From contig JBDSGF010000020.1 of assembly GCA_039919135.1 (NCBI GenBank), positions 1 to 28,585 on the forward strand: 28,585 bases of DNA, in the 5' to 3' direction. Both the position numbers and the translations under genes were made by a program. Source of the stretch: Candidatus Limnocylindria bacterium. Lineage in GTDB: Bacteria > Chloroflexota > Limnocylindria > QHBO01. Under the pieces are notes generated by a model. It searched no databases. It was not told the DNA's origin and saw nothing but the letters and a program-made list of their open reading frames with translations. Positions 21,263 through 21,970 of the stretch are shown here, one piece after another (position 1 is the stretch's first letter; each line of letters opens with the position of its first letter).

Positions 21263-21313
21263 CTCTGATTCTCCTCGTGACGGGCGCGCTGGCGCGGCCC
21301 GATGCGTTCGGTG

Positions 21314-21970
21314 TCAGCTGTGCTGAACGAGCGCTTGAGGCGGCCCGCGGCCGGCAATGGCCCACGCCAGCGGCGACGTGCGAGCGACGAAGAGCCGCAG
21401 CGGGGGCCGCAGGACGGACCGCGGCGCGCGGCCGAATGCTTGCCTCAGCGTCGCTGCGATGACCGCGAGTAGCTCACGCTCGACGCCAAGAGCGGCTGTC
21501 GCCAGGAGTGCGGCCATCCCGCTGATAAATGCGATGACCGGGAGGGCCAGCGGATACTCCGGGCCGAGCAGCACGCCGAGGCCCGTGGCATGCATGTGGG
21601 TGAGGTGGTGCTCGACGTTCTCCTGGATCAGGAAGCCGATGGCGACGAGGGCAAAGAGCCGCACCCAGGTCCGCAGGAGGCGGCTCTGCCCAGCCCTGGC
21701 GGGTGCAGCGCCCAACAAGAAGGCTCGCTGCCGCAGTCGACGCAGGCGGATCCATGCTCCGGCGGCGACCGCCAGACCGATGACGCCCAGCGCCAGGCTG
21801 GCGAAGCCCCAGTATCCGTGGCCGGCCTCACGCAGCGCGCGGGAGAGCGACTCGCCGGGGCCCATCTGAATGAGGATGATCGCGTCGTGGCTGAGGAAGA
21901 GCGCAACGCCGGCCAGCGCCCAGAAGGCGAGCCCTGGCGGGATACGCGCAAGCGTCGCTCCGATCCTCAT
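21314..21970 (-). CDS. His-rich 4-TM membrane protein ending in an RGPP arrest-like motif (218 aa)
   Basis: Four hydrophobic segments; SHD, GHGYW and QENVEHHLTHMH motifs; AGRGPP followed by 7 residues before the stop. Start placed at ATG 21970. Confidence 0.7.
   Translation of the reverse strand: MRIGATLARIPPGLAFWALAGVALFLSHDAIILIQMGPGESLSRALREAGHGYWGFASLALGVIGLAVAAGAWIRLRRLRQRAFLLGAAPARAGQSRLLRTWVRLFALVAIGFLIQENVEHHLTHMHATGLGVLLGPEYPLALPVIAFISGMAALLATAALGVERELLAVIAATLRQAFGRAPRSVLRPPLRLFVARTSPLAWAIAGRGPPQALVQHS

Follow-up and report, generated by a model that had tools for sequence, protein, structure and literature searches.

Known RAPP/RGPP arrest peptides and the Limnocylindria locus

The closest described counterparts of the system reported here are arrest peptides with RAPP or RGPP near the C-terminus. 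The system itself comprises a predicted leader gene, called X, and the copper operon that follows it on a 28,585-nucleotide (nt) stretch of contig JBDSGF010000020.1 (assembly GCA_039919135.1, positions 1 to 28,585 of the forward strand; the window) from a Candidatus Limnocylindria bacterium of the Chloroflexota. According to Fujiwara et al. (EMBO J, Dec 2025; PMC12992588), no arrest cores are more robust than RAPP and RGPP; their arrest is refractory to EF-P, and proteomes exclude them save close to the C-terminal ends of small proteins that are secreted or membrane-bound. The same study found thousands of RGPP/RAPP upstream open reading frames (ORFs) for transmembrane (TM) proteins before genes for YcnI-family, DUF1775, CopC, and PCuAC proteins, with enrichment also before genes for TonB receptors and thioredoxin-like proteins; 2570 RGPP and 280 RAPP cases, mostly TM proteins, lay before YcnI-family genes. 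For seven RAPP/RGPP proteins of Streptomyces lividans, arrest occurred in vitro as well as in vivo and depended on the Arg. One of them, with motif-dependent arrest, was SLIV_18480, which has four TM segments, a predicted copper site of three His and one Met, and ycnI downstream. In saturation mutagenesis the Arg was irreplaceable, Ala-to-Gly was fully permissive or enhancing, and Ser, Pro, or Asp was partially tolerated. SD (Shine-Dalgarno) sequences and RNA structure are not treated in that paper.

The precedent for copper control is CruR (Bp2923, DUF2946) of Bordetella pertussis, in which copper at the nascent chain relieves RAPP arrest and the copper-uptake operon is switched off via Rho (Roy et al., mBio 2022; PMC9426467); arrest and a toeprint at its Pro-Pro codons were shown later (PMC12992588). 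X resembles CruR in being an upstream ORF that ends in RAPP/RGPP and heads a copper-uptake operon. CruR is small and secreted, with a signal peptide, a CxxC motif, and a Rho-dependent output, whereas X has four TM segments, no Cys, and no DUF2946 match, and its RNA suggests regulation where translation starts. With ApdA and ApdP (Sakiyama et al. 2021, PMC7897499; Morici et al. 2024, PMC10951233), X shares the arrest core, a conserved stretch N-terminal to it, an N-terminal localization signal, and a gene downstream; those two are small secreted export monitors with secDF/yidC-type genes downstream, whereas X is a four-TM bundle before copper genes.

SLIV_18480 is the nearest match in architecture. 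Like it, members of the X family are polytopic four-TM proteins with a C-terminal R-G/A-P-P near the stop and with conserved His residues that are predicted to bind copper, and the next gene, in the same orientation, codes for a His1-type copper protein of the periplasm. Unlike it, they belong to Chloroflexota, and their arrest is predicted. Their motifs (LxxHD, GHxYW, QENxEH) differ by eye, and no QENxEH string occurs in the searched part of the supplement tables of the Fujiwara study. X has 218 amino acids (aa) compared to 284 in SLIV_18480, which carries Cys40 and Cys127, while the X family has no conserved Cys; and the downstream protein, here called Y195, is not detectably DUF1775/YcnI. 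The first-pass annotation of this DNA regarded the architecture as undescribed. That claim fails, because PMC12992588 already reports RAPP/RGPP TM leaders before YcnI/CopC genes and arrest in this four-TM, His-type member.

In the SecM-secA and MifM-yidC2 systems, a ribosome arrested on the leader opens an mRNA structure in which the downstream SD is concealed, and pulling force releases the stall. Many X-family loci differ from these in that the predicted anti-SD is formed by the arrest codons themselves (GCU CCU CCU versus GGAGGAG), which close a three-way junction; this pairing is weak in the window. The operon itself resembles Bacillus subtilis ycnKJI, which is reported to combine a CopC-CopD fusion importer likewise with a membrane-anchored periplasmic His1 copper protein (PMC8424229, PMC12362106). 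There control is transcriptional and lies with the YcnK repressor, whereas the X locus has no adjacent regulator gene and has a predicted stalling leader instead.

A predicted arrest-peptide leader ending in RGPP

We consider it likely, from sequence, that X, a membrane protein, regulates in cis as an arrest peptide of the RAPP/RGPP type and that it heads a copper-uptake operon. Its two defining features are as follows.

21314..21970, minus strand: leader gene X (ORF list and sequence; family profile match 4e-71 over 21323-21970)
21349-21338, minus strand: arrest-motif codons CGC GGG CCG CCT, encoding Arg208-Gly-Pro-Pro211 (sequence)

From the ATG at 21970 the product has 218 aa; an alternative in-frame ATG at 22003 would give 229. 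The former is the likely start, given that the family profile begins to align there and that most homologues have 217-222 aa. The protein ends SPLAWAIAG-RGPP-QALVQHS before a TGA stop at 21316-21314, so that RGPP (residues 208-211 of 218) lies seven codons before the stop. His residues are clustered in SHD (27-29), GHGYW (50-54), and ENVEHHLTHMH (117-127), and the 218-aa form contains zero Cys. An AlphaFold2 model (predicted local distance difference test, pLDDT, 85.5; predicted template modeling score, pTM, 0.73) has four long helices, spanning residues 12-36, 52-85, 98-125, and 142-179; its tail (180-218) is of low confidence and, on the model, probably disordered. With four hydrophobic helices and fewer than 300 aa, X falls within the size and TM range of RAPP/RGPP arrest peptides. 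The charge distribution, read from the sequence, makes both termini and the loop at 75-101 (8 Arg) cytoplasmic and would place H28/D29, H51, and QENVEHH at the outer membrane face. The first-pass annotation had described the ORF, its four hydrophobic helices, the His clusters, RGPP, a 51-nt spacer, hairpins, and the His1 protein with CopC-CopD, and all of these were found where it had placed them.

Zero families were matched by X in Pfam (E<=0.1) and NCBIfam scans, and a PDB fold search with the model returned generic helical bundles only (E>1), with no structural relative. X is the sole ORF with R[AG]PP within 20 residues of the C-terminus in its own genome (57% complete; ORFs crudely filtered by third-position G+C content, GC3). 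A Sec-type RAPP leader was likewise not seen in this 57%-complete genome under the same crude filter.

The stall register of X was predicted from the ApdA, ApdP, and CruR toeprints (PMC12992588); by analogy, Pro210 would occupy the P site and Pro211 the A site. TM4 (about 141-163) ends ~47 residues before the P-site Pro. Force-profile work places the membrane insertion of a helix outside the exit tunnel at about this distance.

Conservation of the leader family

Relatives of X were recovered as 249 matches in a word-indexed search, in which the named ones were Candidatus Limnocylindria proteins or Chloroflexota proteins from metagenome-assembled genomes, and as 268 representatives at 50% identity clustering in an exhaustive search. 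A further homologue search gave close Limnocylindria matches only, among the matches listed, and a search for loci from the single X protein gave three metagenome loci and one genome locus. An Atlas look-up returned unnamed clusters only, with Actinomycetota and Vulcanimicrobiota as leads. The family is present in 29/401 Chloroflexota species-representative genomes, in 114/401 genomes of its own class (a tally that counts three genomes flagged unpublished, G651, G478, and G604, whose sequences were not used), and in 33/51 of its own genus. Some genomes hold 2-4 copies; the copy number is 3-4 in G124 and G091.

The C-terminal motif is a constant feature of this family. In 120 of the 120 best homologues the C-terminus reads A-G-R-[A/G]-P-P and then about 7 more residues, and of 149 listed distant representatives, down to ~30% identity, 122 carried RAPP and 3 RGPP 1-14 residues before the stop; the exceptions were mostly short, truncated- or frameshifted-looking, with aberrant C-termini. 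Among 78 genome-derived loci the core was RAPP in 62, RSPP in 7, RPPP (including WRRPPP) in 7, and RGPP in 2. The tail between motif and stop has 1-14 residues across the family, with modes of 5 and 7, and a family-specific conserved stretch, SPLAxAxAG, lies immediately N-terminal to the core. Leaders at loci L050, L052, L053, L056, L061, and L063 end W-R-R-P-P-P or R-S-P-P, and motif searches confined to RAPP/RGPP would miss such members.

In an alignment of 129 members, whose sequences were chosen for having the motif, H28, R208, P210, and P211 were invariant and the second motif position was Ala in 97%. H51 (98%), E117 (98%), and E120 (99%) were near-invariant, W54, Q116, and N118 exceeded 90%, H121 stood at 83%, and no conserved Cys column was present. 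Pfam scans run member by member on these 129 sequences gave scattered chance matches only and no family in common; X is not a DUF2946 protein. The distance from QEN to the motif Arg was 88-98 residues (median 92; 110 sequences), although the linker sequence itself varied. The annotation had also suggested that TM-to-motif spacing matters, and the TM4-to-motif distance is indeed conserved across the family, as are, in the homologue check that it proposed, RGPP/RAPP and its near-stop position, the outer-face His/Glu residues, and the linkage to copper genes, all across a deep family. The variation of the motif (A>>G,S,P, with R and PP fixed) equals the arrest-permissive set and therefore provides independent support for a motif kept for stalling.

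The same conservation raises the question of whether X is instead a structural or accessory membrane subunit of copper uptake, for example a partner of CopD or Y195, with the R-A-P-P tail serving docking, sorting, or proteolysis. The whole four-TM body is conserved and folds confidently, which exceeds the needs of a pure leader; X travels with copper genes; and the predicted RNA switch (see below) is absent from the window's own RNA. Against such a role stand the nature of the motif, since no stronger arrest cores than RAPP and RGPP are known and proteomes strongly avoid both unless they lie close to the C-terminal end of a small secreted or membrane protein (PMC12992588), the match between position-2 variation and the arrest-permissive set, and the low-confidence, probably disordered state of the tail in the model. 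A protein-level role would also leave unexplained the enrichment of U at synonymous sites and the covarying RNA junction described below. We therefore judge a subunit function very unlikely and continue with X as an arrest-peptide leader.

Linkage to copper genes

Two co-oriented genes follow X.

20675..21262, minus strand: Y195, a 195-aa secreted protein with a C-terminal TM anchor (ORF, signal peptide, model)
18801..20678, minus strand: CopC-CopD fusion, 625 aa, YcnJ-like (Pfam CopC 2.9e-17, CopD 4.1e-10; NCBIfam)

The spacer between X and Y195 (21313-21263) is 51 nt, with the Y195 ATG at 21262; spacers were 37-138 nt in 62 loci with a located downstream start. The GTG start of CopC-CopD overlaps the Y195 stop (GTGA, 20675-20678), an arrangement from which Y195 and CopC-CopD are probably translationally coupled, and control of Y195 initiation would therefore extend to the importer.

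Y195 carries a signal peptide whose predicted cleavage site reads Ala-His, and a TM helix lies in its C-terminal part. Pfam and NCBIfam scans of Y195 were without match, and its 949 homologues are all "hypothetical"; H27 (the first mature residue), E44, and H112 are invariant in this family. A mediocre model (pLDDT 65.7) shows a beta-sandwich domain, for which the best fold match was Helicobacter pylori CrdA, a weak one (E 2.7e-3, TM-score 0.67 by target). An identification as YcnI was considered and set aside because YcnI was not among the top 50 fold matches; nor was a DUF1775 match found for Y195 and three distant orthologues, or anywhere in the 57%-complete genome, and the likeness to YcnI is one of architecture only. 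Members of the Y195 family almost always sit between a stalling leader and CopC-CopD. Y195 is likely a periplasmic copper chaperone, and its family is a candidate new family of such chaperones, analogous to YcnI.

Of 35 X-family genes in Chloroflexota species genomes, about 17 precede a Y195 homologue with CopC-CopD behind it, and about 9 precede a stand-alone CopC, several of these with Caa3_CtaG next. Three had CopC-CopD at a downstream distance of a few kb, and the one checked among them had a cupredoxin in first place. Some of the remaining genes had an SCO1/SenC or thioredoxin-like gene directly downstream, and a few stood directly before non-copper genes (a BNR-repeat protein, a periplasmic binding protein, and a family-less membrane protein). 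The wider neighborhood (aminotransferase ... MoaA) is also conserved within the class, and the informative cases of linkage are therefore the distant ones. Three distant members on unrelated contigs, with entirely different flanks (ABC transporters, hemerythrin, GGDEF), retain the order X, an unannotated protein of ~200 aa, and CopC/CopD. A single leader family seems to serve several copper-delivery modules. Leader paralogues (L044:5787-6458, L059:4540-4926, L057:4064-4894, and L038:3390-4352) were observed before SCO1/SenC, cupredoxin, or thioredoxin-like (AhpC/TSA) genes, or before CopC followed by Caa3_CtaG.

These neighbors bear on whether the signal is copper at all. An arrest peptide could instead report membrane-insertion capacity, as MifM, ApdA, and CliM do, or another metal, or the envelope redox state. 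The characterized Sec/YidC monitors are all released by insertion force, and the TM4-to-motif spacing of X would fit such a device; thioredoxin-like or AhpC/TSA genes follow some family members, and His/Glu sites are not specific to copper. Yet a Sec or YidC gene was downstream in 0 of the ~40 loci examined, nearly all of which had CopC, CopD, a His1 protein, SCO1, a cupredoxin, or CtaG. The outer-face H/H/E/E/H set, moreover, resembles the Cu(II) sites of partner proteins, and CruR offers a precedent for a RAPP stall released by copper. A non-copper signal thus appears improbable to us, and copper is retained below as the most plausible ligand of X.

Upstream of X, a 120-aa ORF at 22052-22414 (plus strand) matches the first 72 of 198 positions of Cation_efflux (CDF; 3e-16). 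This ORF occupies, on the opposite strand, a gap of ~440 nt that separates the aminotransferase gene (22442..23866) from X; in related loci the gap is 12-73 nt and empty. The ORF looks like the truncated remnant of a metal-efflux gene.

RNA structure between the arrest motif and Y195

The segment from the end of X to the Y195 start contains the following elements.

21314..21337, minus strand: seven tail codons (QALVQHS) plus TGA, holding the P1 5' arm and an inner hairpin UCAGC/ACA/GCUGA with the stop codon (minimum free energy, MFE, fold)
21304..21310, minus strand: P1 3' arm CGAACGC, pairing with codons GCG-CUC-G at 21334-21328
21281..21301, minus strand: P2 GC-rich hairpin GGGCCGCG/CCAG/CGCGCCC (hairpin 21300-21282), ending 5 nt before the SD, without a U-tract
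21271..21276, minus strand: SD GAGGAG of Y195, 8 nt before the ATG at 21262

When the window was folded in short context, GAGG of the SD (21276-21273) paired with CCUC of the arrest motif (21340-21337), a helix that we call P0. Folds from the motif to the next start gave the same three-way junction (P0, P1, P2) in many relatives. In P0 of these relatives the arrest codons, typically GCU CCU CCU CG, pair with the downstream SD (CGAGGAG). In P1, the codons right after Pro-Pro pair with the first nucleotides of the spacer and the stop codon lies within the loop or inner hairpin. A P2-type hairpin is present in nearly all relatives, with differing sequences. The small hairpin around the leader stop codon (UCAGC-NNN-GCUGA; 21314-21326 in the window) recurs in relatives at many loci, and at least two of the three stop nucleotides were paired in most MFE folds.

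The first-pass annotation had proposed two competing hairpins here. The second, P2, is real and conserved; the first, CCGA-ACGCA-TCGG at 21311-21299, which shares two G with P2, is not the conserved one. In the conserved structure GAACGC pairs with the last codons of X, and the stem so formed crosses the stop codon. As an alternative to P1 in the stalled state, CCGA-ACGCA-TCGG was rejected, falling outside the conserved model; a 4-bp CGAA/UUCG version recurs by eye in some relatives. The folding that the annotation had called for did uncover the pairing of arrest codons with the SD in relatives, but gave only 4 bp and no clear switch in the window.

Codon choice in the motif is in line with an RNA role. 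The Pro codon CCU makes up 36% of motif Pro codons versus 5% elsewhere in the same genes (odds ratio 9.6, Fisher p 3.5e-23), and GCU 31% of motif Ala codons versus 7% elsewhere, while Arg codons are unbiased. The enriched wobble U's, three nucleotides apart, face the two A's of GAGGAG.

Pairing between the SD and the stalled-ribosome footprint, defined as the 29 nt covered by a ribosome at Pro-Pro, was compared in 62 phylogenetically related loci with controls in which the upstream part was dinucleotide-shuffled. The mean pairing probability was 0.49 versus 0.12 in shuffles (Wilcoxon p 4e-7), and reached at least 0.5 in 32/62 loci versus 0 in controls. Overall, the SD was paired with a family mean probability of 0.85, the segment from Pro-Pro to the SD was more stable than its shuffles (mean z -2.2), and a helix across the stop codon was found in 43/62 loci. 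Masking the footprint raised the unpaired probability of the SD from 0.15 to 0.29, as compared to 0.17 with a control footprint 45 nt upstream.

RNAalifold on MAFFT alignments (27 loci; 9 loci) returned the junction as absent or wrong, because the hairpins shift register, and we therefore supplied the junction by hand and realigned 22 loci with a covariance model, a procedure that leans towards the given structure. On this alignment 81.8% of junction cells were paired, compared to 71% in shuffles and 37-49% with the partners slid. Compensatory changes occurred in 15/25 junction pairs, a count reached by 0/500 shuffles, and included all 7 outer P1 pairs and 3/6 P2 pairs. P2 cells were 93.8% paired. 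P0 was 82% paired and nearly invariant, and it barely covaries because both of its sides are constrained.

An Rfam search of 20500-22600 gave no match, and a promoter/terminator scan gave no promoter-like or terminator-like site. Public "RNA" runs containing this stretch are probably DNA, hold only fragments of relatives, and were uninformative on transcription.

How a stall would be read out is a separate matter, since the output could run through transcription termination (Rho-dependent, as for CruR) or mRNA stability and not through SD unmasking. CruR acts via Rho; folding predicts no SD-footprint pairing for the window or for roughly half of the relatives; and a GC-rich hairpin, P2, is conserved between the genes. 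The spacer, however, would be a poor Rho loading site because it is short (about 40-60 nt) and highly structured (the z of -2.2 given above), P2 has no U-tract and nothing resembling a terminator was found, and both the wobble-U enrichment in the arrest codons and the strong SD sequestration (0.85) point to initiation control. Termination or mRNA decay is thus an unlikely route, though one to be taken seriously, and initiation control by SD unmasking remains our preferred output.

Proposed mechanism and its weighing

We propose the following course of events. A ribosome translating X would insert TM1-TM3 co-translationally, bringing H28/D29, H51, and Q116-E117-N118-x-E120-H121 to the outer face, and would then stall, Pro210 occupying the P site and Pro211 the A site, while TM4, ~47 residues back, is just out of the exit tunnel and inserting. 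The stalled ribosome would keep the next ribosome-binding site open, which allows synthesis of Y195 and, through translational coupling, of the CopC-CopD importer. Once a ligand, most likely Cu(II), occupies the outer-face site, the nascent chain would fold or insert and in doing so exert a pull on the peptide that releases the stall, and the ribosome would terminate seven codons on. The RNA would then refold into the three-way junction of P0, P1, and P2, and downstream initiation would drop. The predicted logic, as in CruR, is that copper-uptake genes are ON when copper is low and OFF when it is high; the ON-at-low-copper sign is predicted by analogy, from CruR and from the import role of YcnJ/YcnI in B. 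subtilis.

The comparison of relatives shows that motif, residues, spacing, gene linkage, and RNA junction are conserved and that the codons are biased. From this we infer stalling itself, copper as the signal and its direction, release by force, and SD unmasking, and for the locus in the window SD unmasking is the weakest component. Several points weigh against our account. The window allele, GGG CCG CCU, leaves only a 4-bp CCUC:GAGG helix, and with 30-60 nt more context the SD-footprint pairing of the window falls to ~0, while masking leaves the unpaired probability unchanged (0.37 to 0.37). In another fold of the window, the SD region pairs with early Y195 codons. The SD pairs elsewhere in about half of the relatives, the covariation was counted on an alignment fitted to the model, and the p-values overstate support because the loci are phylogenetically related. 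The assignment of X to copper comes entirely from its neighbor genes, and X could also function as a mature protein.

A more far-reaching version of the proposal is that the Cys-free His/Glu four-helix family arose independently as a periplasmic Cu(II) sensor that works during translation, in which metal binding by TM1-TM3 alters the insertion force on TM4 at its fixed distance of ~47 residues from the stall, GCU-CCU-CCU doubles as an anti-Shine-Dalgarno in a covarying junction, and Y195 stands in for YcnI. We hold this combination to be possible but doubtful. If true, it would bring sensor, stall site, and RNA switch together within about 110 nt.

Significance

What is new here is a separate, unnamed Chloroflexota family with a Cys-free H/H/QENxEH signature and an unnamed His1 partner that replaces YcnI; the use of arrest codons as an anti-SD in many members is a predicted addition. 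As the family also shows, surveys that rely on annotation overlook leaders of this type if the gene behind them has no name, which is the case for Y195. The discussion in PMC12992588 asks how a ligand bound on the outer side of the membrane can free a ribosome that is stalled on the inner side. The X family provides a clean case for this question, with a confident four-TM bundle, few invariant outer-face His/Glu residues, and no Cys chemistry, and it also offers a tightly fixed TM4-to-motif distance, a short spacer, and, in many members, a structure that can be recoded synonymously. Uncultured soil Chloroflexota (Limnocylindria) appear to control copper import post-transcriptionally.

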